NCBI GenBank assembly: GCA_946186245.1
Contig: CAMHMN010000003.1
Span: 5,733 to 69,732 of the forward strand
Origin: an uncultured Clostridia bacterium
GTDB lineage: Bacteria > Bacillota > Clostridia > Oscillospirales > Acutalibacteraceae
Direction of reading: 5' to 3'
DNA length: 64,000 nt
The stretch's first letter is position 1, and the number at the start of each line of letters is the position of its first letter. Both the position numbers and the translations under genes were made by a program. Of the stretch, positions 6,600-63,802 are shown one piece after another. Below the pieces are notes generated by a model that made no database searches, was not told where the DNA came from, and saw only the letters and a program-made list of their open reading frames with translations.

Positions 6600-8447
6600 G
6601 TGAACAACCATAATGTTGGCGGAAAGAATTATCCTATGGGCTACAACCCGCAGCAGCCGGTCGTACAGCAGCCCGTCAGACCCCAGCAGCCGGTCATGCA
6701 GCAGCCTGTCAGACCCCAGCAGCCGGTCATGCAGCAGCCTGTCAGTCCCCAGCAGCCGGTTATGCAGCAGCCCGTCAGACCCCAGCAGCCGGTTATGCAG
6801 CAGCCCGTCAGACCCCAGCAGCAGATGTATGCTGTACCGCAGTATCAGCCGCCTGTGATCCGTCAGACGCCTCCGCACACAATCCAGGCCAGGGAAGCCA
6901 TCGGCTCGATGAATAAGGCGCTCTTCGTCATTCTCTCGGTGCTGTTCGGCTGGATCTTCAGCCGCTCTCTCTTCTCGTTCCAATACGGTGTAGGGATGAC
7001 GGTGATGGGTCTTTCCTTCTATCTCATTTACGTTCCGTTTATCCTCGCCAAGGGCAAGAAAAAGACTTCCCTCTTCAGTTGGCTTCTCTTTTTCCCGCAG
7101 ATCATTATCTTCGCCTCCTTTACCTTCTACTCTGATTACAGGATGATCATTGTCGGTCTGGTGGCTTCGTTCATGATCGCGGCGATACAGACTACGCTTC
7201 TGTCCAATTGCACCACAGGCAAGCCCTTCTCCTTTGAGCTGATATGCGACACATGTGTCACTTATTTCGCTTTGCCCTTTATGAATATCGGCAATACCAT
7301 TGCCGGCATTTTCTCCAACAAGGAAAAGGGGGAAAAGAAAAACCGGACCTGGCTTAAAATAGCCATCGGCGCGGCGATTTCGTTCCCGGTCGTCTTTATT
7401 CTCGTCATGATTTTCGCCTTTGCCGACGAAATGTTTGCCATGTGGGTCAGTAAGATTCTCCGGATTCTGAATCTCAACCCCTTCAGAATTACTGCGGACA
7501 TCATTTTCACCCTCATCGTGATGCTCTATGTCATGCCTCTGGCGGTTTCTCTCCGCAGCGGCTATCACAAGCAGTACAACCACAAGGAATCCCGCCGTTT
7601 CTTTGACCCGGTCATCACTGCCACCGTGCTCTTTGCCGCCAGTGTGGTCTATCTGATCTTTGTGGCTGCGCAGTTCACCTATCTCTTTGCCGGCATCGGC
7701 AGTCTGCCGAAGGATACCACCCTGGCCGAATACAGCAGAAGAGGCTTCTTCGAGCTGGTGTTCGTCATCGTGGTCACTACCCTGATCATGGGCATTGTAT
7801 GCATGCTGACCAAGAATAATCAGCACGGCAAACTTCCCGTCTATGTCAAGATCGCACTTCTCATCATTACCCTGAGCAACGTCGTGATCATCGTTTCGGC
7901 TGCACGCCGCCTGATTATCTACATCAATGCCTATAACCTCACGGTTTCACGCTTCAACGCCGCCGTTCTGATCGCGTTGATGGCAGTGGTGGATATCGTC
8001 GTGGCTCTCCGGATCATATTTGACCGGCTGAAAGTTTCGGCTGTCATAGGCAGCATTGTCGTTCTGACGGCCGCCGCTTACTGCATCTTCAACGTCAACG
8101 GATTCGTTGCCAAATACAACGTCGACCACTACCTGTCTGATCCGGTCAAGTACCAGATCGACGTCGAATACATGGTAAGAGATCTTTCCGTCGCCGCTGT
8201 TCCCCAGCTGGAACGCCTCATGGAAAAAGCGCCCAGCGAGCAGGTCGGACAGCACGCAAAGCTGGCCATCGCTTACATCGCCGACCAGGCAGACCTCTTC
8301 GCGGGGGATGAAAAACACATAGCCCGCTGGACAATCGACCGTCAGATTGCCGTTAATATCATCGACAAGCACGAAATCACATGGGAAATGTCAGAGGAAT
8401 ATTTCGATAAATACATGTCGACCTATTCCAGCTACAGATACCTGTAA
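6600..8447 (+). CDS. Polytopic membrane protein with Pro/Gln-rich repeat N-terminus (DUF4153/DUF4173-like, tentative)
   Basis: GTG start follows AAGGAGAG. The N-terminus carries five QQPVRPQQPVM repeats, followed by about 12 hydrophobic helices and a soluble C-terminal tail. Confidence 0.7.
   Translation: MNNHNVGGKNYPMGYNPQQPVVQQPVRPQQPVMQQPVRPQQPVMQQPVSPQQPVMQQPVRPQQPVMQQPVRPQQQMYAVPQYQPPVIRQTPPHTIQAREAIGSMNKALFVILSVLFGWIFSRSLFSFQYGVGMTVMGLSFYLIYVPFILAKGKKKTSLFSWLLFFPQIIIFASFTFYSDYRMIIVGLVASFMIAAIQTTLLSNCTTGKPFSFELICDTCVTYFALPFMNIGNTIAGIFSNKEKGEKKNRTWLKIAIGAAISFPVVFILVMIFAFADEMFAMWVSKILRILNLNPFRITADIIFTLIVMLYVMPLAVSLRSGYHKQYNHKESRRFFDPVITATVLFAASVVYLIFVAAQFTYLFAGIGSLPKDTTLAEYSRRGFFELVFVIVVTTLIMGIVCMLTKNNQHGKLPVYVKIALLIITLSNVVIIVSAARRLIIYINAYNLTVSRFNAAVLIALMAVVDIVVALRIIFDRLKVSAVIGSIVVLTAAAYCIFNVNGFVAKYNVDHYLSDPVKYQIDVEYMVRDLSVAAVPQLERLMEKAPSEQVGQHAKLAIAYIADQADLFAGDEKHIARWTIDRQIAVNIIDKHEITWEMSEEYFDKYMSTYSSYRYL
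6651..6815 (+). repeat. Five tandem 33-bp repeats (CAGCAGCCGGTCATGCAGCAGCCTGTCAGACCC)
   Basis: Read directly. Units are at 6651, 6684, 6717, 6750 and 6783 with 0-3 mismatches each, in frame (QQPV[MV]QQPV[RS]P). Confidence 0.9.
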
Positions 8448-23342: not shown

Positions 23343-24130
23343 TTGCCCGCTGTCAGATGAACCGTTCCGCCCCTGAAAGAAACATCCGTCTGCTGCTCTT
23401 TGACCTGGACGGCACGCTGCTCGACAGCGGAAAGCGCATTTCGCAGCGGAATCTTGCCGCAATTGCCGAATGCCGCCGCAAGGGAATCATGATCGGCGTT
23501 GCCACCGCACGCAGTGAATCCACCTGCGCGCGATTCGTCCGGGAAATAGAACCCGACCTGCTCATTTCCAACAGCGGCGCCCTTGTGCGGCTCCTCGGCA
23601 AGATCATTTATGAGTGCGGATTCAACGCCGCCGAGACTTCCGCCATCATAAACGCCGGCGTTGCCGAACATCGCGGCATTACGGCGGACTGCGCCGACGT
23701 CACTTATACCAACCGCTACATCGAGTTCTTTCACGAGTCGGGAATGGAATACACCGATTTCTCCGGTTTTTCCCGCAGCTGCTTCAAAATCTGCATTGAG
23801 GGAACGGATGCGGAATTCGCCGATCGCACCGCCGCGCTGGTGGAAGACTGCTCGTGGCTTGCCTTCTCCGACTGCGACTGGTTCAAATTCTCCAAAGGCG
23901 GCGTTTCCAAAGGGGACGCCCTGCGCCATGTGGTGAGCAGCACGGGCATTCCGGCGGAAAATATGGCGGCTTTCGGCGACGATTTCGTCGATATCGAAAT
24001 GCTCGACCTCTGCGGCGTCGGCATTGTCATGTCCAATGCCGTGGATGAGGTGAAAAAGCACGCGGATGTTGTCATTGACGACAACGACAGCGACGCTATC
24101 GCGGAGTATTTGCATCTTCACGTTCTGTAA
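23339..24130 (+). CDS. Cof-type HAD-IIB hydrolase
   Basis: LLLFDLDGTLLDS, VATARS and FGDDFVDIEMLDLCGVGIVMSNA. The start overlaps the upstream stop as ATGA. Confidence 0.85.
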   Translation: MIARCQMNRSAPERNIRLLLFDLDGTLLDSGKRISQRNLAAIAECRRKGIMIGVATARSESTCARFVREIEPDLLISNSGALVRLLGKIIYECGFNAAETSAIINAGVAEHRGITADCADVTYTNRYIEFFHESGMEYTDFSGFSRSCFKICIEGTDAEFADRTAALVEDCSWLAFSDCDWFKFSKGGVSKGDALRHVVSSTGIPAENMAAFGDDFVDIEMLDLCGVGIVMSNAVDEVKKHADVVIDDNDSDAIAEYLHLHVL

Positions 24131-26149: not shown

Positions 26150-26152
26150 GAT

Positions 26153-26268
<116 letters not shown>

Positions 26269-26336: not shown

Positions 26337-26575
26337 GTGTTTTTTTTATTTTTTTTAAAATTTTTTCCGGCTTTGTTTTCTTCCCTCCGAGAGAGGAAAT
26401 AACGCCGCCAAATATTGACATTTTTTTAACAATCGTTCTTCGTTTTTTGTTCCAAATCAATCATAATAGTTACAAACGCCCATGTGCTATTGACATAAAA
26501 CGAAATAAATATATAATGAATGTATAAAAGTTATTTCAAATTTTTTACGTTGCATCTATAGGGCAGGAGGTTATT

Positions 26576-27718
26576 GTGATTATGAAGAAAAAGAATCTCA
26601 CAAAGCTGTTTACCATTCTGGCATCCGGCGCGCTGATTGTCAGCACGGTTCTGGTTTCCTCTTTCAGCGGATCGGATGCCGAAACACGGACGGTCAGGGA
26701 AGAAACCGTCGCCAAAAGCGGATCCTTCGAGTATTCCAGGGAAATCTCGGTCAGGAATCTGAACCTCGGCAGATTATTCGGCAACAACGAACAGGATAAA
26801 GACAACGACCAACCGGGCGAGGCACCCGCTCTCACTCCCGAAACCACCACCACTGCAACCGTCCTCACAACCAAGCAGGCCACTTCCACCACCGCCTCCA
26901 AAACGACGACCGTCAGGAAAACCACCACGACGACCGCAAAAATTCCCACCGATGAGTCCAAGAATATACAGTATATAAAGGATCCCGACTACAAATCCCC
27001 GTATTACATCGTTGTTTACACCGGCAGCCAGTCCGCCGTCGTTTACGGCAAGGATGAATCCGGCGCTTACAACAGAATCATCAAGGCATTCACCGTTTCC
27101 ACCGGCAGACATAATGCCACCCCCACCCGCAAGGGCGTTTACAAGATCAGGGCAAAGTACAGATGGCGCAAGCTCATGGGCGACTGCTACGGTCAGTATT
27201 GCAGCAGCATCAGCCCCAATTACCTCTTCCACTCTGTGCCGTATGCCAACCGCAGCGTCAATTCCCTCTACAACAATTCCTACAACAACCTCGGCAGAGC
27301 GGTGTCTCACGGCTGCATCCGCATGTGTGTCAGGGACTGCAAATGGGTGTTTGACAACTGCCCGATAGGCACCCAGGTGCATGTCGTCTGGGAATCCGGA
27401 CCCAAGGGCGCAGGCGTTCCGAGACGCAAGAGCGGTTCCAGATACAGCGGATGGGATCCTTCCGATCAATGGGCACCCGGCAACCCCTACTTCAACGGCG
27501 TTTCCACCACCGAATCCAAGCCCGTTACCACGGTAAAGACCACCACCACCGCAAAACAGACTTCCAAACTCACCTCGGGCACTTCGTCCACCGCATCCTC
27601 CGCTTCCCCGACAAAGTCTTCTCAGACTACGACCGAAAAAACACACGCATCCTCCACCACTACCAAAAAAACCACCACCGCTCCTTCCGAAGTCAGCAGT
27701 GAAGAAGCCGTAGGATAA
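26576..27718 (+). CDS. L,D-transpeptidase (YkuD domain) with Thr-rich linkers
   Basis: AGGAGG RBS with GTG 26576 or ATG 26582 as start. Signal/TM segment, YkuD motifs HSVPY...SHGCIRM, and Thr/Ser-rich segments on both sides. Confidence 0.88.
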   Translation: MIMKKKNLTKLFTILASGALIVSTVLVSSFSGSDAETRTVREETVAKSGSFEYSREISVRNLNLGRLFGNNEQDKDNDQPGEAPALTPETTTTATVLTTKQATSTTASKTTTVRKTTTTTAKIPTDESKNIQYIKDPDYKSPYYIVVYTGSQSAVVYGKDESGAYNRIIKAFTVSTGRHNATPTRKGVYKIRAKYRWRKLMGDCYGQYCSSISPNYLFHSVPYANRSVNSLYNNSYNNLGRAVSHGCIRMCVRDCKWVFDNCPIGTQVHVVWESGPKGAGVPRRKSGSRYSGWDPSDQWAPGNPYFNGVSTTESKPVTTVKTTTTAKQTSKLTSGTSSTASSASPTKSSQTTTEKTHASSTTTKKTTTAPSEVSSEEAVG

Positions 27719-27768
27719 TTCTCAGCCGTATGAAGGATCTGTTCAGCTGAATTTGCACACATACTGTT

Positions 27769-27822
27769 CACCGTTATTTCTGCCATCACGACGGACGCCG
27801 CAGAAATAACGGTGATTTTTTA
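27769..27822 (+). terminator. Strong rho-independent terminator
   Basis: CACCGTTATTTCTGC (27769-27783) pairs perfectly (15 bp) with GCAGAAATAACGGTG (27800-27814), followed by TTTTTT. Confidence 0.9.
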
Positions 27823-27853
27823 TCTGAAATGTGTGGAATTATCGGGAACGATG

Positions 27854-28166
27854 TGCTATAATTATAATGAAGTGATATTTTCATTTTTCAGACGATTGTA
27901 AAAGTAAAAAAAGCAAGCGAAGCGTCATAATTAGCGAGCGAATGCGAGCGCGGGTTTCCAAAGGGATAGTGTCTCTTTGGCGGGTCAAGGGCAGAGCCCC
28001 ACGAGCGAGACGAAGTCGAGCGAGCAAGATGCACTTAAATAATCAGCAAACTCAGGCGAATACAGAAGCTGTCCCATTCTACGATTCGTCTTGCCCCTAA
28101 TGGAGAAAAAACCCGTTTTATAAGTCGCACCAACCCGCTGATTTCAGGCATTTTACAATCGGCTAT
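27854..28166 (+). repeat. Leader/MITE-like repeat element, copy A (promoter + GC-rich hairpin module bounded by inverted termini)
   Basis: Blocks in order: TGcTATAAT (27854-27862), GATATTTTCA (27874-27883) and left terminus CGATTGTAAAA (27893-27903). Then AAAAAAAGCAAGCG, GCGGGTTTCCAAAGGGA (27950-27966, hairpin with TCTCTTTGG) and GGGTCAAGGGCAG (27982-27994). Then GAGCGAGCAAGA (28018-28029) and GGCGAATACAGA (28055-28066). The right terminus TTTTACAATCG (28151-28161) is the perfect 11-bp inverse of the left terminus. The element ends 39 nt before ATG 28200. Confidence 0.75.
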
Positions 28167-28199
28167 TCTTTTTTTGGAAGGAGAATCGGTGAAGAAGGC

Positions 28200-28775
28200 A
28201 TGAAATACCTGGGGGAATTCTTATCCTATATATTAATCGCCGTTTTTGCCCAGAACCTGCTACTCGGCAGGGCGGTCGGCATGAGTGACATCATCACGGC
28301 AACCCGCCACAGACGGTCGCTGACCAATCTGCTTCTGCTTGTGGGAGGCTGGTCGACTACCGGCATCATGCTCATGTGGCTCCTGTCCAGATTTGTGAAG
28401 GACATGGACGATTATCTCATGTTTGCACTGCTGCATTCGCTGGTCTGTGCGGTGGCATATTACGCGTCGGACAGGCTGCTCGCCCGTTTCAGTCCCCGGC
28501 TGTACGCAACCTTTCAGGAAGTCATGCCCCACGCGCTGATCAATGCCATTGTGGTGGGAGCACCGCTGTCGGCGCTGTCTTCCGGCATTCCCAGCTGGTA
28601 TGCCGCCCTTGGGTACGGAATCGGTTCGACGCTGGGCCTGGGCCTGGGTGTGATTCTGATCAGGAACGGACAGGAAATACTCAATCAGCCCGACGTTCCC
28701 AGAGCGTTTCAGGGCGTGCCGATCATGCTGCTCTACATCGGAATTCTCTCCCTCGGGTTCTGCGCTTTTTTATAA
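28200..28775 (+). CDS. Stand-alone, divergent RnfA/RnfE (Rnf-Nqr) family membrane protein
   Basis: Six predicted TM helices. The N-terminus LIAVFAQNLLLGRAVGM parallels RnfA LVNNFVLVKFLGLCPFMG. The C-terminus PDVPRAFQGVPIMLLYIGILSLGF parallels RnfA [24 protein letters not shown]. No other rnf or nqr genes are adjacent. Confidence 0.6.
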   Translation: MKYLGEFLSYILIAVFAQNLLLGRAVGMSDIITATRHRRSLTNLLLLVGGWSTTGIMLMWLLSRFVKDMDDYLMFALLHSLVCAVAYYASDRLLARFSPRLYATFQEVMPHALINAIVVGAPLSALSSGIPSWYAALGYGIGSTLGLGLGVILIRNGQEILNQPDVPRAFQGVPIMLLYIGILSLGFCAFL

Positions 28776-28854: not shown

Positions 28855-29829
28855 ATGCAGTGGATAGAAACCAACATATACACCACCACCGAGGGCATTG
28901 AACCGCTTTGCGGCCGGCTTTACGCGGTGGGGCTCAACGGTGTGCAGATCAAAGACGCGTCGGATTTCAACGACTTCATTGAAAACGAGACGCAGTACTG
29001 GGACTACATAGACGAATCGCTCGAGCCGCTGAAAACCTGCGAAACCTGCGTCACGGTGTATCTCACTGACGACGCGGACGGAAGGGAGCTGCTCAGCCAC
29101 ATCCGCGGTACGGTCGCGGAGCTGAAAGCACTCGACGCGGAAGGCAGATTCGGCAGGCTGGCAATCGAACTGAACGGCATCAACGAGGAAGATTGGGCAA
29201 ACAACTGGAAAAAATATTACAAACCGTTTAATCTTGGAGAAAAATTACTGATTAAACCCGAATGGGAACATCTCAATGACAGCGACGCACAGGACAAAGT
29301 GGTGTTGAGCATGAATCCCGGTCATCTTTTCGGAACAGGCACCCACCATTCAACGCAGCTCTGCATGATCGAGCTGGAAAAGTACGTGCGCAGCGGCGAC
29401 AGGGTGCTTGATCTGGGCTGCGGCAGCGGAATTCTCTCGATTCTTTCGCTGCTGCTGGGGGCGGAAAGCGCTGTCGCTGTGGACATCGACCCGGCTGCTC
29501 CCGCCACTGCGATGGAAAATCTCTCCATGAACGGCATTTCTCCCGACCGGTACAGCGTACTGGTGGGCAACGTCATTGACGACGAGGCGCTGAGGGAAAA
29601 AATAGGTGGGGATTATGACGTGGTTGTCGCCAACATCGTGGCGGACGTTATCATAGCGATGAGCCGCACGGCGTATTCTCAGACCCGCAAGGGAGGCGTA
29701 TTCATCACCTCCGGCATCATCGGACCGCGCTCGGACGAGGTCAGGAACGCAATCATCGAGGCGGGCTTTGAAATAGCGGATCTTCACGAACAGAGCGACT
29801 GGGTGTGCATTACGGCTAAGAAAAACTGA
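28855..29829 (+). CDS. prmA: Ribosomal protein L11 methyltransferase
   Basis: PrmA N-domain, FGTGTHHSTQLC and VLDLGCGSGILS SAM motif. Confidence 0.93.
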   Translation: MQWIETNIYTTTEGIEPLCGRLYAVGLNGVQIKDASDFNDFIENETQYWDYIDESLEPLKTCETCVTVYLTDDADGRELLSHIRGTVAELKALDAEGRFGRLAIELNGINEEDWANNWKKYYKPFNLGEKLLIKPEWEHLNDSDAQDKVVLSMNPGHLFGTGTHHSTQLCMIELEKYVRSGDRVLDLGCGSGILSILSLLLGAESAVAVDIDPAAPATAMENLSMNGISPDRYSVLVGNVIDDEALREKIGGDYDVVVANIVADVIIAMSRTAYSQTRKGGVFITSGIIGPRSDEVRNAIIEAGFEIADLHEQSDWVCITAKKN

Positions 29830-35749: not shown

Positions 35750-36012
35750 TTTACATTTGGGATAAAAAGATTTATAATATGTTGTATATAGGATATTTTC
35801 AGGAAATCAATCAGTCGATTGTAAAGGCAAAAAATGGAAGCCGCACAGCGGCGGGTTTCCAAAGGGACGGTGTTCCTTTGGCGTGCGCGGAGCAGCACCC
35901 ATCGCAGCAATAACCTCGCGCAACCAATAGGGGGCAAGCATTAAAAAGGTCTGCGATTTTCAATGCGCAAATCCCCGGATGAATGGCTTTTTTGCACTTT
36001 TACAACCGGCTA
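35750..36012 (+). repeat. Leader/MITE-like repeat element, copy B
   Basis: TTTACA (35750-35755), 17 nt, TATAAT (35773-35778). Then GATATTTTCA (35792-35801), left terminus CGATTGTAAAGG (35816-35827) and an A-run. GCGGGTTTCCAAAGGGA (35851-35867) is identical to the 17-mer in copy A and forms a hairpin with TTCCTTTGG. The right terminus CTTTTACAACCGGCTA (35997-36012) matches copy A TTTTACAATCGGCTA at 14/15. The element ends 35 nt before ATG 36043. Confidence 0.75.
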
Positions 36013-36042
36013 AGGAAAACGATACAAAGGAGGGATATAATC

Positions 36043-37908
36043 ATGAGAAGATACCAATTGAGCGGATTGGAGCACGTCCATGTGTTGCGGCATGTTCCCA
36101 GAAGCTACGATATGACTCGCACTCATATTATGCACAAGGGCGTGAACAAGCACGTCGACGTTGTGCTCAGATGTTCCCCGAAGAACTGGAAGAAAAAGAA
36201 GGTCGCAGTCAGCGTTGTCAGAGGCGAAAAGAAGAACGACGCCGCACGCATCAGAGCCAACGCCAAAAAGGGATACGTTGCCGTACGCAGGGCTGCCAGT
36301 GATAAATTTGAAGCCGATCGCCTCGCCGCCGCGGCAGCGTACGAAACCAAGTACGGCAGACCGTCCGCAGGCGCTGACGCTCTCATTCACGACATGAAGA
36401 GCCAGCTTTCCACCATGGCCAAAAAGAGCGCCGATTTCATCGACGATCAGCTCAGCGCAAATCCCACGGTCACCTATCCTACTTTCAAATCCACTCCCGA
36501 CACCGACACCGCGGTTCCGGCCTCCGCCGAAACCGAAACGCCTCTTATCAGCCTCGAAAGCGAAAAGATTCTCAAGGAAGGCGGCTACCGCATGCCGGGC
36601 GACAGGCTCTATCCCAGCAACCCGTATGCAACCGATTATCTCAAACAGACCTCGGATGAGGAATTCCATATTCTGATGAATTCTCTGGAGAAATCGCTCG
36701 ACGAGGCATGCAAAAAATACGCCTCCCCCTCCGGAGACGCCGACGTCAGCACCCAAGCCGCTTCCCAGGTCAATGCCGAAACCGAGCCGCCCCATGAACC
36801 GGAAACGGAGAATCATTACTTCAGCAATTACACGGGCGGTTACAGGCTGCCCAACGACGTCAGTGTCAGCGTTTCCAAGAAGCAGGAAACCCATAAGGAG
36901 GAAAAGCCGGAGGTTAAAACCGAGGAAGAAAATCCGGCGCTCATGGAGGACTTCCAGCCCACGCTCAGATTCACCGATGGCGGAGAGCATTACATTCCCA
37001 CCGTTCCCGACAATTCCTTCACCACCGACAACTCCCCCGTGGACGATCTGTTCGACCGCGAACTGCATCGCCCCGGCGACAGATATGTCCCCCCTGCCTA
37101 TTACTTTGACGACGACGACAATGCCCCGGCTGCCTTTGAGGAAGAGGAAAATGAACACGAGGTTTCTCTCCCCGATGTGGTACCGGTTCAGACCGCACCG
37201 CAGCCGCAGGATATTTTCTATACGACAGACGACCAGACGCACGACGATCTCTTCTTCGGTACGTTCAGCGATGAACCCGACCGGGAGGATGTCCCTCCGG
37301 TCGTGCCGGAGGAAGAATCCGTTTCCCCGGATGATTTCGCCGCCGAAGGCTATCCGCGCGAGGATTATGAACAGCAGCAGGTGTTCTTCCCCACCCTGGA
37401 GGACAACACCCGGCTCTACAACCCGCCCCAGAATGAGGATAATTTTGCGCAGCCCACATTGTATCCCGAATCGGTCGAAACGCCCGTCAGCGAGGACGAT
37501 GATGACGATCCTCCCATGGTATTCCCCGACAGCGGAGAGAACGATCTTTCGCCTGCCGAGGAAAGCCCGTACGATGACGACGAGGAGCTGCCGCCTCCCA
37601 TGATTTTCCCTGACGAGGACGAAGAGCTGCCGCCCCCCATGATTTTCCCCGATGAGGACGAAGGCTACAGCCCCGCGCCGGTTTCACCCGACCGCAACGA
37701 GCCGTTTGAAGGAACCGCCGATCATCAGGGCTTGATAGACCGTTCCGGACAGACGCTTTTCAGCCGCACGGGCGACCAGATCAAGAAGGTCATCGGCGTC
37801 ATCCGCGGTTCGGATGACAGCGCCGCCGGTTCCAAAAAACAGGATCCTCCCATTCGCAATCAGAACGTGGAGATAACCTATTCCGACAGGGAAAGATACA
37901 ACAGATAA
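36043..37908 (+). CDS. Hypothetical acidic, Pro-rich low-complexity protein (621 aa)
   Basis: ATG 36043 follows AAAGGAGGGA. The track ORF from 35983 starts inside repeat B. A basic N-terminal region of about 90 aa precedes a long D/E/P-rich region with a duplicated EELPPPMIFPDEDE. Confidence 0.55.
   Translation: MRRYQLSGLEHVHVLRHVPRSYDMTRTHIMHKGVNKHVDVVLRCSPKNWKKKKVAVSVVRGEKKNDAARIRANAKKGYVAVRRAASDKFEADRLAAAAAYETKYGRPSAGADALIHDMKSQLSTMAKKSADFIDDQLSANPTVTYPTFKSTPDTDTAVPASAETETPLISLESEKILKEGGYRMPGDRLYPSNPYATDYLKQTSDEEFHILMNSLEKSLDEACKKYASPSGDADVSTQAASQVNAETEPPHEPETENHYFSNYTGGYRLPNDVSVSVSKKQETHKEEKPEVKTEEENPALMEDFQPTLRFTDGGEHYIPTVPDNSFTTDNSPVDDLFDRELHRPGDRYVPPAYYFDDDDNAPAAFEEEENEHEVSLPDVVPVQTAPQPQDIFYTTDDQTHDDLFFGTFSDEPDREDVPPVVPEEESVSPDDFAAEGYPREDYEQQQVFFPTLEDNTRLYNPPQNEDNFAQPTLYPESVETPVSEDDDDDPPMVFPDSGENDLSPAEESPYDDDEELPPPMIFPDEDEELPPPMIFPDEDEGYSPAPVSPDRNEPFEGTADHQGLIDRSGQTLFSRTGDQIKKVIGVIRGSDDSAAGSKKQDPPIRNQNVEITYSDRERYNR
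37582..37659 (+). repeat. Tandem duplication of a 39-bp unit (35/39 identical)
   Basis: GAGGAGCTGCCGCCTCCCATGATTTTCCCTGACGAGGAC is followed by GAAGAGCTGCCGCCCCCCATGATTTTCCCCGATGAGGAC, in frame. Confidence 0.85.
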
Positions 37909-40307: not shown

Positions 40308-40368
40308 TTTCTGTCCTGTATCAGAACAAACGTATTAATATTTTCAGATGAAAGTGAGGTAATCCGAC

Positions 40369-42502: not shown

Positions 42503-43477
42503 TTAGGGCTCCGAACGGTCATCATCCGACGACGAATGAGAAGTGGTCGAGGAAGGTTCACTGCTGTGCGAAGTCGTCCTTGTGGTGGTCGGCTCGGTCG
42601 TCGTCTTGGTGGTGGACGGCGCTTCAGTCGTCGTCTTAGTGGTAGAAGGCGCCTCGGTGGTCGTCTTGGTAGTGGACGGTGCCTGCGTCGTCGTCTTGGT
42701 GGTGGACGGCGCCTGGGTCGTCGTCTTGGTGGTGGACGGCGCCTCGGTAGTCGTCTTGGTGGTGGAAGACGACACGGTGGTCTTCTTGGTTGTGGATTTC
42801 ACGGTGGTGGTCTTCGTGATGGGAGCCGCCGTCGTGACCGGTTTCTTTGAAGTGGTGGTCACCGCCGCAGAAGGCCCGGTTTTCCTGGTTGTTTTCTTTG
42901 AAGTCGTCTTGGTGGTGGACTTCTGGTTGGCAGCCTTGGTAGTGAGCGGTTTTGCAGACGTGGCCACCGTGGTTTTCTTGGTGGTCTGTCTGGTTGTCTT
43001 CTTGGTGGTGGTGTGTTTCACGGTCGTCGTGGTTTTGAGTTCCTCGTTGTTGACAACCGGCAGTTTGGTGGTCACCGTGGTCATAAAGAGGAATTGCTCG
43101 TCGATTTCGTCTTCCTCGACGTCGAGCGTTTCGGAGGTATAATCCTCGTCATCATCGTCGTCGATGAATTCCACTACCGTTACACCGCCGTCAATATTGA
43201 CCGGCTCCTCGGTGGTGGTGGTGGTAGGAGCGACCGTCGGCTGTTCGTCAGTCATGTCCTCGGAATCGCTCTCCGAAACGGCATAACCCGGCGTTTCTTC
43301 AATGGAGGTGTCGCTGAAGGAAGTAACGTAGTGAATTTTGGGAACCGGCTGCAGATAGCTGTCGGTCGATGTGCTGCTGCTCACAATACTGCCGCACACG
43401 AACACCGTAGCAAACAGCGCGACAAACATTGACATGACGATCATGAATTTCTGTGCAACAGACTTGTCCAGAAGCAA
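42503..43477 (-). CDS. Membrane-anchored Thr-rich (mucin-like) repeat protein
   Basis: N-terminal TM (FMIVMSMFVALFATVFVCG), an acidic region, then TTKTTT(E/Q)APS decapeptide repeats. The exact start is uncertain because TTG 43477 sits too close to AGGAGG. Confidence 0.6.
   Translation of the reverse strand: MLLDKSVAQKFMIVMSMFVALFATVFVCGSIVSSSTSTDSYLQPVPKIHYVTSFSDTSIEETPGYAVSESDSEDMTDEQPTVAPTTTTTEEPVNIDGGVTVVEFIDDDDDEDYTSETLDVEEDEIDEQFLFMTTVTTKLPVVNNEELKTTTTVKHTTTKKTTRQTTKKTTVATSAKPLTTKAANQKSTTKTTSKKTTRKTGPSAAVTTTSKKPVTTAAPITKTTTVKSTTKKTTVSSSTTKTTTEAPSTTKTTTQAPSTTKTTTQAPSTTKTTTEAPSTTKTTTEAPSTTKTTTEPTTTRTTSHSSEPSSTTSHSSSDDDRSEP
42601..42780 (-). repeat. About six tandem 30-bp repeats encoding APSTTKTTT(E/Q)
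   Basis: Units of TCGTCTTGGTGGTGGACGGCGCCTCGGTCG-like sequence every 30 bp from 42601, read directly. Confidence 0.85.
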
Positions 43478-43629: not shown

Positions 43630-46005
43630 TTACTTTTTTTGCAGATCTATTGTCTTTTCGAGCGCGTTGGCAAGGGCGCGGGCGATATTCTTGGGATTGT
43701 CGATGATCCATCTGGCGGAATCGGCGTTGTCGTGATATTCCACCTCCGCCAGGAGGCTGATCATGCCGTAGTAGGCGGGATCCCTTACCTCGGCGTAACC
43801 CACATTTTCAAATCCCTTCATGCCGTCCACGGTCTTGCTGCCGACGGTTGGCATAAAGGGGGATATCTTGCCCATTTCGTTTGCCATATTCTCACCCAGC
43901 AGCCGGCTCTGCTCACAGCCTGGGAAGTAATAACCCACTGCGCCGTACATCTTCTTGGAGGAATGAGCGTTGCTGTGAATGGCGAGATAGACGTCGGCGT
44001 CCTTGTTGTAAGCGTCGGTGGGACGGCAGTTGAAATTGATCTTCATGCTGACCGGCGGCATATAGACCACGCAGAGATATTCTTCCTCGAGTATCTTTTT
44101 CAGCTCGTTTCCGACGCGGTACATCTGTTCCCCTTCGGTGGTGGAGCCGGCTGCGTATTCATTCTTTGTCTGGCGTGAGGGCGAAAGGTAGATGATCGGC
44201 ACACCGCCCTCCTTGAAGCTGCGGCTGGGTATGGTGACGCATTCATTCCGGTATACGGAAGTCTTGGAGCGGGCAATCCATGCGCTCTTGCCGTTCAGAT
44301 TGAAGCGATACCATGTGGCGTCGCCGGAATCGCAGTCCCATTCCAGCGCAAGGTATCTGGCGCCTGCTTTGACGGTGCCGACACTGGAATAATTCGTGCC
44401 CGGGCCGGAATACACCGTCGTGCCGTTGCTTTTGACGGTGAAGGTGCGGTTGATGTAGATCTGATCGCTTTTTTTGGTTATCATGGCAAATGTAACCGAG
44501 CTGTCGACAGCTTCTCCGTTTTCATCCGTCACGCGGCAGTAGACCTGCATGGCGTGCCATGTGCAGTCGGCTTCCTCGGTCACCTTGGGCTCGGTGCCTT
44601 CCTGCCACAGTGTCCAGTCGGACTCGCCGGCCTTTTTGCGGTACCACTGATAACGCAGCCCGCTGCCGGAAGCGGTAATCGAAAACGAAGCCGTCTCGCC
44701 CGAATGAACCGTGACTTGCGCCGGCTGTGTGATGATTTTAACGGCGGGGGTGACGATGATCCTGGCCGACCTGGAATTGACGCTCGCGCCGGATTCATCC
44801 GACACACGGCAATAGACCTGCATGCCGTTCATTGACAGCTCGGCTCTGGCGGACAGCACGGATCCGGTCTGTCCGTACCATCTTTCCCATGATTTCGTAT
44901 CCGGCATGCGGCGGAACCACTGATAAGAGCATTTGCCCGTACCGCGGGCAGTAACGGATGTTTTCAGGCTCGTGCCGGACAGAACATTGGTGCTTACAGG
45001 TTGAACGGTAACGGAAAGCGGCTGGCTGATTCTGACGATCGCCGTATCGGAAACCAACTGCGCACCCGAAGCATCGGTGAGCTTGCAGTACACCTCCATC
45101 ATGTTCCATGAGGAATCGGCCTGTGCCGATATCATCGGCGAAGTCTGACTTGTCCAGACCGACCAGTCATTCGCACCGGCTTTTTTATAGTACCACTGAT
45201 AGGTGATTTCGCCGGTTCCCTTCGCCGACAGGAATATTTCGGGAACCTGACCCGCCTTTACCATCACGCCTTCCGGCTGTGTCTGGATGGAAAGCGGCTG
45301 CCTGACCGTTACCACGGCAGTTTCCGACAGGGCCGTGCCGCCGGCTTCGTCAGTGATCACGCACCATACGCGCATCAGGTTGCAGGTTTCATCGGCAATT
45401 GCCGACAGGCTGGGGGAAGTATTTCCGCTCCAGGCGGTTCCCTGGTTCATATCCGCCTTGCGGAAAAACCACTGGTAGTGCAGACTGCCGCTGCCCTGTG
45501 CCGACACGGAAAACGCCATTTTCTCGCCCGGTTTTACGGTGATATTCTTCGGCTGCTTTTGCAGCACAATAGGCTTTGCCAATCTGACAACCGCCGAATT
45601 GGACGAAACGGTGCTGCCGGAAGCGTCTGTCACCCGGCAATAGACCTTCATCATATCCCATGTGGAATCCGCCGTATCGGTGATGGAAGCCGTCGTATGT
45701 CCGCTCCAGACCTGCCATTTTCTGTTGCCTTGCTTGCGGCAATACCACTGATATTTCAGCTCCGATCCGGTCGCTTCCACGCTGAAGGACGCCCTGTTGC
45801 CTTCCTTGACGATGACGTCCGACGGATGGGATGTGATGGCAAGCGTCGCGGTCTCCGCGGGTGCGGCGTTGACCTTGCTTTCCCCCGCATAAACCTCCGC
45901 GCGTCCTCCTGCGGGTGAAATAAAGTATCCGGCCGCAAACGCAAGAGTCAACGCAATGGCGATCGCTTTTTTTGCCGACAAACGAATATGATCGTAGTAA
46001 CGCAT
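43630..46005 (-). CDS. N-acetylmuramoyl-L-alanine amidase (Amidase_3) with five Ig-like repeats and an SH3b-like domain
   Basis: Signal/TM segment, then five repeats of about 90 aa each carrying (Y/F)QW(Y/F)..K......W..W ... M.VYC.VTD. An SH3b-like segment (WYRFNLNGKSAWIAR) follows. Catalytic motifs are ADVYLAIHSNA and LLAEVEYHDN. ATG 46005 is preferred. The track TTG 46113 start runs through the amidase relic. Confidence 0.85.
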   Translation of the reverse strand: MRYYDHIRLSAKKAIAIALTLAFAAGYFISPAGGRAEVYAGESKVNAAPAETATLAITSHPSDVIVKEGNRASFSVEATGSELKYQWYCRKQGNRKWQVWSGHTTASITDTADSTWDMMKVYCRVTDASGSTVSSNSAVVRLAKPIVLQKQPKNITVKPGEKMAFSVSAQGSGSLHYQWFFRKADMNQGTAWSGNTSPSLSAIADETCNLMRVWCVITDEAGGTALSETAVVTVRQPLSIQTQPEGVMVKAGQVPEIFLSAKGTGEITYQWYYKKAGANDWSVWTSQTSPMISAQADSSWNMMEVYCKLTDASGAQLVSDTAIVRISQPLSVTVQPVSTNVLSGTSLKTSVTARGTGKCSYQWFRRMPDTKSWERWYGQTGSVLSARAELSMNGMQVYCRVSDESGASVNSRSARIIVTPAVKIITQPAQVTVHSGETASFSITASGSGLRYQWYRKKAGESDWTLWQEGTEPKVTEEADCTWHAMQVYCRVTDENGEAVDSSVTFAMITKKSDQIYINRTFTVKSNGTTVYSGPGTNYSSVGTVKAGARYLALEWDCDSGDATWYRFNLNGKSAWIARSKTSVYRNECVTIPSRSFKEGGVPIIYLSPSRQTKNEYAAGSTTEGEQMYRVGNELKKILEEEYLCVVYMPPVSMKINFNCRPTDAYNKDADVYLAIHSNAHSSKKMYGAVGYYFPGCEQSRLLGENMANEMGKISPFMPTVGSKTVDGMKGFENVGYAEVRDPAYYGMISLLAEVEYHDNADSARWIIDNPKNIARALANALEKTIDLQKK

Positions 46006-51256: not shown

Positions 51257-53578
51257 TTATTTTTTCTTTTGCAGACCGAAGGTCTTTTCCAGCGAATTGG
51301 CAAGGGCGCGCGCTATTTTGTCGGTGTTGTTGATGATCCACTTGGCGGAATCCTTGTTGTCGTGATATTCGACCTCCGCGAGCACGCCGACCATTCCGTA
51401 ATAGGTGGGGTCGCGGACTTCACCGTAGCCGGTGCCGCCGAACGCCGACATGCCTTCTCTGAGCTGATTTTTGACCGTGGGCTTTTTGATGCTGATCTTT
51501 TTCATCTCGCTGACGATGTTCTGACTGAGCACCTTGCCCTGATTGCAGCTGGGAGAATAATAGCCGATGGCGCCGTAAACCGCTTTGGAAGAAATCGCGT
51601 TGCTGTGGATGGCGAGATAGACATCCGCCTCTCTGATATAAGCATCATACGCGCGGTTTTTCAGGCCAAGATGAAGCGAAGTGGGAGGAATGTAGGTCAT
51701 GCAGTAGTATTCCTCCTCCAGGATCTTCTTGAGAGCCTTGCCCACGCGGTACATCTGCGCCTGTTCGGTTGTGTTGCCATAGGCAAACTTATTGTCCGGC
51801 TGTTTGGAGGGCGAAATGTATATGATCGGAATGCCGCCGTCATTGAATTTGCGGTCGGGAATGGTGGTGTATTTGTCTTTGACGGTAACGCTGGTGCGGG
51901 GAACCCAGACGTTTTTGCCGTTGTACTTGAATCTGTACCATGTGGTATCCTTTCCGTCGGCTGCCCATTCCAGCGCTTCAAATGATTTTTTGGCGTTGAT
52001 CTTCGCCACGACGCTGTACTTTGTTCCCACGCCGGAATACACCTTGGTGTAGTTCTTGCTGATGGTAATGGTGCGTTTGAAGTAACGCTTTGAACCCTGC
52101 TTGGTTATCATGGCATAGACCGTGTCGCTTTTCAGCGTATTGTTTTTGCTGTCGGTCACCTTGCAGTACACCTGCATGCCGTTCCATGTGCAATCGGCTT
52201 TCGCGCTCATTTCCGGGGAGGTCATTCCGCTCCAGAGCGTCCAGTCGCTCTTGCCCGCCTTTTTGTAGTACCACTGATAGCTCAGGGCATTCGCCGAGTA
52301 GGCCTTGACCTTGAATGTCCCGGAATCACCGACATGCAGCGTCACATCCTCCGGCTGTCTGGTGATTCTCAGCTTGCCGGTGAGCAGCGCCGTGGCGGAT
52401 TCGGAATTTTTGCTCCTGTCGAGGGCGTCCGTGATCTTGCAGTACACCTGCATGCCGTCCCAGGTGGAATCGGACGTTCCCGAAGCCTTGGCCGAAGTGT
52501 ATCCCTCCCAGAGCGTCCAGTCGGTTGCGCCTTCTTTTCTGTAATACCACTGGTATTTCAGATTTCCCGAACCCTGCGCCTTGACGGTGAAGGAGGTCGT
52601 TTTGCCGGCCTGTGATACGGCGTCCGTCGGCTGCTCGAGAATGACCAGCGGCTCGTCAATGATGACCGTTGCCGCATTGGAATCAATGCTGCCCGACAGG
52701 TCGGAAACCTTGCACCGGACCTGCATCATCTTCCATGACTCATCGGAGGTTGCCGTGACGGAGGCGGTTGTCTGTCCGTTCCAGACCGACCAGTCCGATT
52801 CGCCCTGCTTCTTGCAGTACCACTGATAACTCATTTCCCCGCTGCCGTAAGCAACCACGCTGAAGGTGGCAGACTTGTTCAGCTTAACGACGACGTCTTG
52901 GGGATGGGTTTCGATGGAAAGCGGCTGATCCACCGTTACCACGGCGGTATTGGAATATTTGCTCCCGTTGGAATCGGCGACCTTGCAGCGGACCTGCATC
53001 AGATTCCACGACGGTTCGATGCCTGCCGTCGCGGTGGCTGCGGTCTGTCCCTTCCAGGCCGACCAGGCGGAAGCGTTGAGCTTTTTGATATACCACTGGT
53101 ACTTGATCTTGCCCTTGCCCTGCGCCTTGACCGTAAACGAAGCCGACTCGCCGACCTTTCCGGTAAGGCTCTGGGGATGACCCTTGATGGACAGCGGCTG
53201 ATCGACTGTCACTGTCACGGTCTTTGAATAAAGGCTTTTTGATTTGTCGGACACCTTGCAGCGGACCTGCATCATGTTCCAGGACGCATCAACCCTGCCG
53301 GAAGCAGAGGAATAAATACGTCCCTTCCAGGCCGTCCAGCCGGAGTCGCCGACTTTTTTGAAGTACCACTGGTACTTCACCGTCCCGTTTCCGGTGGCTT
53401 TGATGGTGAATTTCACCGTGTTGCCGGGTTTGGCGGTAACGTTTTTCGGCTGGGCGGTAACAGAGAGTGAAGCAGCGTAAACGATTCTTGTCCCGTCCGG
53501 ACTGAAGACTGCGTACGCCAGGACGAACGAGAGCGCGATCAGCAGAGCTGCGACTTTTTTATAGCCCGAGAAATTCAT
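51257..53578 (-). CDS. N-acetylmuramoyl-L-alanine amidase (Amidase_3) with five Ig-like repeats and SH3b-like domain, paralog of 43630-46005
   Basis: Same architecture as the first amidase: five YQWY repeats, WYRFKYNGKNVWVPR, ADVYLAIHSNA and VLAEVEYHDN, with AAAGGACGG RBS. Confidence 0.85.
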   Translation of the reverse strand: MNFSGYKKVAALLIALSFVLAYAVFSPDGTRIVYAASLSVTAQPKNVTAKPGNTVKFTIKATGNGTVKYQWYFKKVGDSGWTAWKGRIYSSASGRVDASWNMMQVRCKVSDKSKSLYSKTVTVTVDQPLSIKGHPQSLTGKVGESASFTVKAQGKGKIKYQWYIKKLNASAWSAWKGQTAATATAGIEPSWNLMQVRCKVADSNGSKYSNTAVVTVDQPLSIETHPQDVVVKLNKSATFSVVAYGSGEMSYQWYCKKQGESDWSVWNGQTTASVTATSDESWKMMQVRCKVSDLSGSIDSNAATVIIDEPLVILEQPTDAVSQAGKTTSFTVKAQGSGNLKYQWYYRKEGATDWTLWEGYTSAKASGTSDSTWDGMQVYCKITDALDRSKNSESATALLTGKLRITRQPEDVTLHVGDSGTFKVKAYSANALSYQWYYKKAGKSDWTLWSGMTSPEMSAKADCTWNGMQVYCKVTDSKNNTLKSDTVYAMITKQGSKRYFKRTITISKNYTKVYSGVGTKYSVVAKINAKKSFEALEWAADGKDTTWYRFKYNGKNVWVPRTSVTVKDKYTTIPDRKFNDGGIPIIYISPSKQPDNKFAYGNTTEQAQMYRVGKALKKILEEEYYCMTYIPPTSLHLGLKNRAYDAYIREADVYLAIHSNAISSKAVYGAIGYYSPSCNQGKVLSQNIVSEMKKISIKKPTVKNQLREGMSAFGGTGYGEVRDPTYYGMVGVLAEVEYHDNKDSAKWIINNTDKIARALANSLEKTFGLQKKK

Positions 53579-63285: not shown

Positions 63286-63295
63286 GGAAATAAGG

Positions 63296-63780
63296 AAAAA
63301 GAAAAAAAGCAAGCGCGCAGCGCCGAATAATGGGGTGCAGGGGGCCACTGCTCCCTGCCGGGTCAAGGGCAGCGCCCTTGCGGGAGTGGTGAGGGCAGAG
63401 CCCTCACGAGCGGAGCGGAGCGGAGCGAGCAAGACGAGCCAGGACACGCAACGGGGTCGGGCGAATACAGACGGAGGAAAGGCGAGCGCAGCGAGCATAC
63501 TGTGACACGCAGTTTCTAAAGAACACCGCGCGGTCAGGCGAATATCAATATCATCAACTATTACCAATCCACTTACATTCGCATACATTGGGTGCTTCTC
63601 AGGCGACCGCTCGCTGCTGACGCAGCATTGCTGGCACGTCATTTTCCGGCTTCGCTCCCTTTGGTTCATCAGGGTGTCATCTGATGCTTCGGCGACTCGT
63701 GGGGACGCCGTCCCCACACCCCCGCCAAAGGAGCCTTGCCCCTTTGGAATCCCATTGTACGGTGCGATTGTTGATTTTTA
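63296..63780 (+). repeat. Composite copy C of the leader/MITE-like repeat family (colinear left copy plus an inverted arm)
   Basis: The left part is colinear with copy A: AAAAAAAGCAAGCG (63302-63315), GGGTCAAGGGCAG (63360-63372), GAGCGAGCAAGA (63423-63434) and GGCGAATACAGA (63460-63471). There are perfect hairpins CAAGGGC/GCCCTTG, GTGAGGGC/GCCCTCAC and GTGGGGAC/GTCCCCAC. At 63719-63753 the GGGATTCCAAAGGGG...CCTTTGGCGGG module is present in reverse orientation. The element ends about 25 nt before the argH RBS. Confidence 0.7.
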
Positions 63781-63802
63781 GTGCAAAGGAGACTTTCAAA
63801 AT

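Follow-up and report, generated by a model that had tools for sequence, protein, structure and literature searches.

Repeat elements in two gene leaders

The DNA analysed here (the window) is a 64-kb stretch of contig CAMHMN010000003.1 from an uncultured Clostridia-type bacterium of the rumen, identical or near-identical contigs of which occur in 14 bovine and rumen metagenome assemblies. The locus under study is the 481-bp space between a YkuD L,D-transpeptidase gene (26576-27718) and a gene for a 191-aa protein (28200-28775), the latter being a distant Rnf/Nqr-type match (Pfam, 59 bits; NCBIfam rnfA, 57 bits against a cutoff of 229) and called the RnfA-like gene below. This space holds, in order, a strong terminator (a perfect 16-bp stem, 27768-27783/27800-27815, and then a T-run), the RnfA-like gene's own extended -10 promoter TGCTATAAT (27854-27862, plus strand), a motif of the initial transcribed region, GATATTTTCA (27874-27883, plus strand), a 277-bp element named A, and the ribosome-binding site (RBS) GGAAGGAG, followed by the ATG at 28200. 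Element A and a second copy, element B, are in all likelihood non-autonomous elements of about 200-280 bp that resemble MITEs (miniature transposable elements with inverted repeats) and lie between the native promoter and the RBS of a gene, and they are not riboswitches.

Element A (CAGACGATTGTAAAA...TTTTACAATCGGCTA, 27889-28165, plus strand) is delimited by its absence from orthologous leaders, by an alignment breakpoint and by contig depth. It is bounded by imperfect 15-bp terminal inverted repeats (TIRs) of the form YAG-N-CGATTGTAAAA, the left one (CAGA + CGATTGTAAAA) at 27889-27903 and the right one (TTTTACAATCG + GCTA) at 28151-28165, both on the plus strand. The 11-bp core at 27893-27903 has its exact inverse at 28151-28161 (11/11), and the arms extend to 14 nt at 93%. 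Recurrence of this 11-mer is not a matter of chance, because with at most one mismatch it has seven matches in the window against 1.25 expected, a count reached by 0 of 100 shuffles. Near-matches to the terminus at 26425, 43606 and 59352, which have neither a partner nor interior blocks, were taken as chance. The GC-rich interior consists of an A-run, GCAAGCG, a double hairpin (27958-27999, plus strand) and GAGCGAGC blocks. The double hairpin is made up of H1, CCAAAGGGA-TAGTG-TCTCTTTGG (27958-27980), and a decayed H2, GGGC-AGA-GCCC (27989-27999). The longest internal open reading frame (ORF) comprises 52 aa and lies within a 71-aa open frame, for which no database protein sharing words was found and by which no relatives or other copies were fished out.

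The second copy was located by sensitive blastn and repeat finding within the window. Element B (CAGTCGATTGTAAAG...TTTTACAACCGGCTA, 35812-36012, plus strand) is 201 bp long, carries H1 at 35859-35881 and is about 76% identical to A over 198 aligned columns. The two elements have both termini and the order of blocks in common, H2 is decayed in both, and the core 11-bp inverted repeat of B carries two changes. Element B lies upstream of a gene for a 621-aa protein (36043-37908), whose promoter, TTTACA-17-TATAAT, is identical in relatives and whose RBS, AAAGGAGGG, precedes the ATG at 36043. Each element is placed within a short native 5' leader, between a promoter and an RBS that both belong to the gene, and is oriented as the gene is.

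Homologs of the RnfA-like protein were retrieved together with their contigs, and loci L131-L137 served for A and L138-L141 for B. In the sister species (L131/L132; 84% aa identity and 87% nt identity in coding sequence), the order YkuD, RnfA-like, PrmA is the same and the intergenic space measures 172 bp, compared with 481 bp here; it measures 160-207 bp in three lineages that are further removed (75, 71 and 65% aa identity). Element A is absent from the orthologous leaders in L131/L132, L133, L135 and L137, where the terminator, the extended -10 box and the RBS stand in the same place; the TGTTATAAT/TGCTATAAT box is kept at the empty sites of L131, L133, L135 and L137. In the sister species, the promoter and the RBS are about 50 nt apart with nothing between them. 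Likewise, B is absent from L138-L141, whose intergenic spaces measure 170-185 bp compared with 385 bp here; in L141, GGATATTTCAGG is joined directly to AAAAACGAG...AGGAGG, and both L138 and L141 have a single AGGAAAACGA[TG] at the site of B. Counterparts of GATATTTTCA also occur at element-free sites (GGTATTTTC in L131 and GGATATTTCAGG in L141). Neither element is present in any orthologous leader examined outside the species, while all ten same-species loci are filled, so that the difference between filled and empty leaders is one between species only. Because the promoter, the GATATTTTCA motif and the RBS are also found at empty orthologous sites, they are native, and the repeat has been inserted into a leader that measures about 50 nt. 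The initial annotation had placed the terminator, the extended -10 box, GATATTTTCA, the 11-bp box with its exact inverse and the hairpins correctly; its view of the whole space from promoter to RBS as one unit is to be narrowed to 27889-28165, the promoter, GATATTTTCA and RBS being flanks.

The ends of the insertions could be fixed to the base. Megablast alignment to the sister contigs resumes at 28166 and 36013, the first base past ...CGGCTA in both copies, and the conserved ends CAG-N-CGATTGTAAA... and ...TTTTACAAYCGGCTA set the bounds of A at 27889-28165 and those of B at 35812-36012. Directly outside these bounds lie short repeats: the 9-bp TTCATTTTT (27880-27888) to the left of A, identical at 8/9 positions to TTCTTTTTT (28166-28174), and the 11-bp AGGAAATCAAT (35801-35811) to the left of B, identical at 9/11 positions to AGGAAAACGAT (36013-36023), each right-hand copy being followed by the native RBS. 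Once the element and one duplicate are taken out, the leaders align with those of the sister species without a gap (with that of L131 in the case of A), whereas taking out the element alone leaves a surplus of 7-10 bases at the junction (7-8 nt for A). The repeats are therefore interpreted as target-site duplications of 9-11 bp that have since drifted. Both the duplications and the empty sites in relatives that had been suggested as checks were thus found for A and B.

Further copies, likewise looked for at the suggestion of the initial annotation, are indicated by metagenomic data in addition to B. Logan contigs of four DNA runs (X1-X4) were mapped on 27700-28300 at a likeness of at least 80%. 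In X4, the flanks have a flat depth of 22.3 and the interior one of 43-200 (about 2-9x), with a step up at 27890-27893 and a step down at 28162-28165, and X1-X3 behave likewise. Run X4 also contains at least four other junctions with different flanks, on contigs of similar depth. Left junctions of other copies (the slash marks the joint) read ...TAGAATAATAATAGG/CGATTG, ...TATGATAGAATAATAATAGG/CGATTG, ...CGACCG/GACGATTG and ...AAATTCGACCG/GACGATTG, with other copies starting ...AGG/CGATTGTAAAAG or ...GCAGG/CGATTGTGAAAG; a right junction reads ACAATCGGC/GTTATCATTCTGTAAAGGAGG, and further right ends are CTTACAATCGGCTG and ...CTTACAATCGGCTGAAAAATTC. The termini are conserved among A, B and the contig ends of these other copies. 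Since one left flank is promoter-like and one right flank contains an RBS, the other copies also seem to be located in leaders. No joints skipping element A were seen in the four runs. Separately, sub-blocks of the GCGAGC/GAGCGAGC type (27910-27951 and 27994-28035) reach about 90x the flank depth in the complex rumen metagenome X3, far above the rest of the element, and are therefore part of a more abundant repeat common to many rumen organisms.

The initial annotation had also reported the same blocks in the same order at two other loci of the window. This holds for B (about 35792-36012) and only in part for the second site, locus C, which has the interior blocks and lacks matching 11-bp termini. 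Locus C (63286-63800), located between an SPFH gene and argH, is a composite insertion 515 bp in length. The 5' part (63292-63475) is a plus-oriented, multi-copy unit of the interior type with two intact GC-tipped hairpins of the H2 type at 63364-63380 and 63389-63407, the middle (63476-63645) is unique and single-copy, and a minus-oriented H1-H2 lies at about 63699-63747. The blocks in common with A (an A-run and then GCAAGCG, GC hairpins, GAGCGAGCAAGA and GGCGAATACAGA) are 84% identical to the 5' half of A over 154 aligned columns. Near-matches to TTTCCAAAGGGA at 23904, 13382, 30659 and 39245 were rejected, as they lie inside coding sequence and lack hairpins. In related organisms, contigs of runs X1-X3 join 63270, 63282 or 63285 straight to 63801 or 63803, with 23-33 nt between, including an RBS, in the two joints with sequence listed; hence the 515-bp spacer as a whole was inserted too. 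An additional genomic copy with homology to the left end of C is preceded by ...CAGGCGATTGTAA, so the interior type also exists inside the TIR frame. The GC-rich interior may accordingly be viewed as a separate and more widely spread repeat module that is carried in the TIR frame, and locus C as a probable insertion of the interior module type without that frame.

The interior double hairpin in other genomes

Both A and B match the 22-base pattern GGGTTTCCAAAGGG-N9-CTTTGGCG, which was scanned over one genome per GTDB species. The H1-H2 module was found at no fewer than 120 loci (L001-L120) from at least six phyla, often at contig ends, with dozens of copies in some genomes. Among the matches listed, about 84 belong to Clostridia/Bacillota, including the isolates Acutalibacter caecimuris and Harryflintia acetispora, 19 to Desulfovibrionaceae, Desulfovibrio or Desulfocurvus, 10 to eight Methylobacterium strains, and two each to Verrucomicrobia, cyanobacteria (Rivularia and Calothrix) and Myxococcales. 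The module sites within the window are 27951-28001, 35852-35900, 63340-63410 and 63699-63755.

The module comprises H1 (GGGTTTCCAAAGGG-loop-CCCTTTGGCG), a G-rich linker ending in GT, and H2, in which a stem of 7-10 bp varies freely and the GC-RGM-GC tip is conserved. A perfect second hairpin follows 3-8 nt further on in 102 of the 116 listed instances that have enough downstream sequence; among these 102, the tip is GC-(AGC/AGA/GGA/GGC)-GC in 84, and 58 different stem sequences are represented. The linker before H2 is mostly GAGT (16 listed instances), GGGT (13), GGGGT or GGT. The frames around this core differ by lineage: a TIR frame in the present species and inverted doublets in Methylobacterium. 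In addition, metagenome-assembled genomes of Desulfovibrionaceae (L002, L012, L030, L031, L045, L074, L082, L104 and L107) have a separate hairpin, N5-8-TTTTCAACTTGTTGAAAA-N', always 5' of H1-H2, and often CCGGAGG after it, which makes a lineage-specific frame around the same core. In Acutalibacter caecimuris (L058, 3530-3990), a 550-bp spacer 5' of pyrG opens with an A-rich run, AAAAAGGAAAAGTAAAAAAGAAAG, and then has two H1-H2 modules, a layout of A-run followed by a string of GC hairpins that is also seen in the interior of A and C.

Several searches for the module were negative. It had no matches in 2.9 million viral contigs and none in PLSDB plasmids, Rfam at gathering threshold gave nothing at the module positions of 19 other loci carrying it, and a literature search by sequence strings returned nothing relevant to it. 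Counts of its gene context (14 same-strand, 14 opposite, 12 convergent and 6 divergent, from crude ORFs) were not relied on, because 52 instances fall inside probably spurious GC-rich ORFs.

We regard the module as a separate, nested or captured repeat of a REP-like kind. Like the REP/BIME/REPIN families, H1-H2 is a dispersed GC-rich palindrome pair with some inverted doublets, a G-rich foot and a variable stem. The hairpin foot of REP elements has a guide tetranucleotide, 5' GT[AG]G (PMC6006769), that the linker before H2 does not show, and REP families are normally lineage-specific, whereas the H1 sequence is conserved across phyla. It is possible, and put forward here only tentatively, that H1-H2 is an undescribed, sequence-conserved dispersed module of cross-phylum range. 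It may be the recognition core of a horizontally spreading single-strand DNA enzyme, in the manner of a REP-RAYT-like system whose foot is non-canonical, or else a site at which a conserved host factor binds.

Nature of the elements

Prokaryotic MITEs are short (<500 bp), lack a transposase gene, have TIRs and flanking target duplications, are present or absent at orthologous sites and occur in several copies per genome (PMC10969869). All of these features are seen in A and B, at 277 and 201 bp, the duplications being imperfect. The suggestion of MITE-like TIRs in the initial annotation is thus borne out by the empty sites, the duplications, the extra copies and the breakpoints at the termini. 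A DNA-level mobile element that is passively co-transcribed is the preferred interpretation because the elements have no Rfam family, fold with ordinary energy, carry non-compensatory changes in the terminal helix (B) and, in the case of A, show extra variation within the species and contain an open frame without relatives. With regard to variation, 5/277 nt are variable within the species in the element, compared with 2/576 nt in coding sequence and 0/263 nt in the other flanks.

Mobilisation presumably took place in trans, through a DDE-type transposase whose gene lies elsewhere. Enzymes of the IS4, IS1 or ISAs1 type typically produce duplications of 9-11 bp, and short termini that begin with CAG/TAG also fall within the range of these insertion sequences; however, no transposase gene or full-length element with these ends was seen among the loci examined, so that the likeness is a lead only. 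Transcription from the native promoter through the element would lengthen the leader from about 50 nt to about 330 nt for A or about 260 nt for B. The termini could pair in such an RNA as they do in Correia elements, and might thereby affect how the mRNA is processed or how stable it is. Speculatively, copies inserted the other way round might terminate the gene's own transcript and be selected against; this would be a possible reason for the shared orientation, because the bottom strand of B bears a terminator-like hairpin and T-run (35852-35840).

The closest parallel is with the Correia elements (CREE/NEMIS) of Neisseria, which are also short non-coding TIR elements with target duplications, often just 5' of genes and co-transcribed with them, and A and B are probably transcribed along with the 5' leader in a Correia-like manner. 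In one Correia copy, situated immediately 3' of the mtrCDE promoter, RNase III cleaves the TIRs that pair in the mRNA (PMC10969869); the geometry of that copy is the same as that of A and B. Correia elements differ in being 100-155 bp long and AT-rich, with 26-bp TIRs, a TA duplication, an IHF site and hundreds of copies (in part from PMC10969869), whereas A and B have TIRs of about 15 bp, a 9-11-bp duplication, a GC-rich hairpin interior and a low copy number, with no sequence similarity to them. The pneumococcal repeats RUP, BOX and SPRITE are likewise small, interspersed intergenic repeats of a Gram-positive host; they differ from A and B in sequence and host, and BOX is without a TIR and duplication frame. 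Insertion of RUP yields a TA duplication, and this repeat is associated with a transposase of the IS630 type. These pneumococcal families are modular, sometimes nested or clustered, and transcribed with their neighbours (PMC3049150; PMC10969869).

Several points weigh against a MITE. No autonomous insertion sequence ending in these termini turned up in the loci examined, and the TIR pattern was found only in same-species loci. Only two copies are complete, the others being known from contig ends, and the copy number looks low, at some 3-7 times the depth of the flanks in X4. The duplications are imperfect, that of A lying in a T-rich tract where similarity is cheap, and a GC-rich interior is unusual for MITEs. 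The evidence from RNA consists of one unstranded contig of low depth, possibly derived from DNA. Furthermore, A, B and at least one or two further copies are situated between promoter and RBS, with A and B both sense, a placement that could hint at selection or function over pure selfishness. A metagenome scan with the left terminus CAGNCGATTGTAAARGNAAAAA was set aside: it returned 74 loci, nearly all of them one human-gut coding gene, with no right terminus within 700 nt. The 22-nt pattern of the left terminus happens to lie inside a coding gene (...QTIVKEKTLIVFDEVQLCE...) of a very common human-gut bacterium (L142-L215), which accounts for about 65 identical false hits.

Among the other explanations considered, the best-surviving one, itself unlikely, is that the element was a MITE in origin and has since been exapted, the leader being kept for its effect on downstream expression. 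This might come about if RNase III cleaved the paired termini, if the GC hairpins stabilised the mRNA, or if the reverse-facing hairpin and T-run blocked antisense transcription. This reading fits the fixation of the element in all 14 species contigs with the gene, the sense orientation in leaders at A and B, the promoter-like or RBS-containing flanks that other copies abut, the bottom-strand hairpin of B, and the Correia precedent downstream of the mtrCDE promoter (PMC10969869). It is countered by the within-species variation, which is higher in the element than in the flanks, by the decay of H2 in both A and B, and by the divergence of A from B, which differ by about 25% and by large indels.

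A more doubtful proposal still is that the whole unit is of the REP/BIME/REPIN type and was moved via single-stranded hairpins by a Y1 (RAYT-like) enzyme or by recombination, the 11-bp termini being incidental. The dispersal of H1-H2 over many genomes, the covarying H2 stems with their conserved tip and G-rich linker ending in GT, the inverted doublets in Methylobacterium and at locus C, and the spread of the interior without termini at locus C all speak for it. Nevertheless, the breakpoints and target duplications of A and B lie exactly outside the termini, a pattern that hairpin-guided Y1 transposition does not produce (PMC6006769). REPINs lack TIRs and target duplications, both of which are present in the frames of A and B; REP insertion without target duplication is thus at odds with the 9-11-bp duplications of the TIR frame, an argument that does not necessarily cover the interior module. 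The canonical foot is also absent, as described above. Finally, neither a Y..NP motif nor phmmer with E. coli RayT identified a RAYT-like protein among 5131 six-frame ORFs of the window and of 141 loci; with about 8 kb sampled per locus, this negative is a weak one.

The remaining alternative, a cis-regulatory structured leader RNA (riboswitch-like or protein-binding) in which the termini form a closing helix and a regulon is controlled, is largely refuted and very improbable: it draws on the position between promoter and RBS, the sense orientation at A and B, minimum-free-energy folds that pair the termini and form H1, and a single, unstranded and hence weak metatranscriptome contig that matches 27933-28162 exactly at a depth similar to that of neighbouring genes, but the element is absent from the orthologous leaders of all related lineages examined, the genes downstream are unrelated (an RnfA-like membrane protein, a 621-aa protein without known family, and argH), the fold z-scores of the leader RNA against shuffled sequence are ordinary (-0.48 for A and -0.60 for B), the terminal helix of B differs from that of A by an A-C mismatch and a G-U pair, which are not compensatory, one within-species change in A breaks H1, and flanking target duplications are not expected of a leader that evolved in place. 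The closing helix of a single structured RNA module, as put forward in the initial annotation, is therefore abandoned on account of the folding energy, the empty orthologous leaders of four to five related lineages and the three unrelated downstream genes; its statement that no known RNA family matches was confirmed, since Rfam 15 gave no relevant family for A, B or C at gathering threshold or at E<=10 (the best being Clostridiales-2, 15.5 bits against a cutoff of 58.6). The MITE-like elements make up a new family, though one whose kind is known, from an uncultured organism, and nothing here indicates ligand sensing or a selected function.

Neighbouring features and significance

With regard to the genes downstream of the elements, the score of the RnfA-like gene is far under the cutoffs of the RnfA/NqrE families. 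This gene stands alone directly 5' of prmA (28855-29829) in all relatives examined (L131-L137), with no other rnf genes adjoining. For the 621-aa protein, neither Pfam nor NCBIfam gives a match; it is conserved at 37-62% aa identity in L138-L141, beside a metallophosphoesterase gene, and except in L141 its gene is also beside a D-Ala-D-Ala dipeptidase (VanX/M15-type) gene in these four relatives.

The native motif [AG]ATATTTTCA has 16 near-matches in the window compared with 4.5 expected, and is also present at the empty sites of relatives. It lies 4-13 nt 3' of -10-like boxes at four sites (27874, 35792, 28810 and 31166), and at 40337 it lies about 13 nt 5' of an RBS with no clear -10 box. 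It may be a marker of the transcription-start region or a shared regulatory site. Elsewhere, a lone 5S rRNA gene (26152-26268, minus strand; 94.5 bits) was detected, with no 16S or 23S rRNA reported in the 64-kb window. Tandem repeats, whose periods are 30, 33 and about 273-276 nt, occur at 42543-43023, 6648-6855, 44492-45330 and 52152-53375, and the paralogous regions 43634-45330 and 51264-53375, about 7.6 kb apart, probably encode repetitive surface proteins.

In annotation, the 300-bp leader is not to be treated as a candidate riboswitch, since the GC hairpins and small ORFs in it belong to the repeat; what truly regulates both genes is the short native segments with promoter and RBS on either side of the element. 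The interest of the finding is modest, and lies mainly in the filled and empty leaders and in the cross-phylum hairpin module. The former amount to two clean pairs, provided by nature in uncultured rumen Clostridia, of a 5' leader with and without the element, which are usable to gauge the effect on expression of a MITE inserted between promoter and RBS. If the H1-H2 module has a dedicated enzyme or binding partner, it would constitute a new widespread repeat system.

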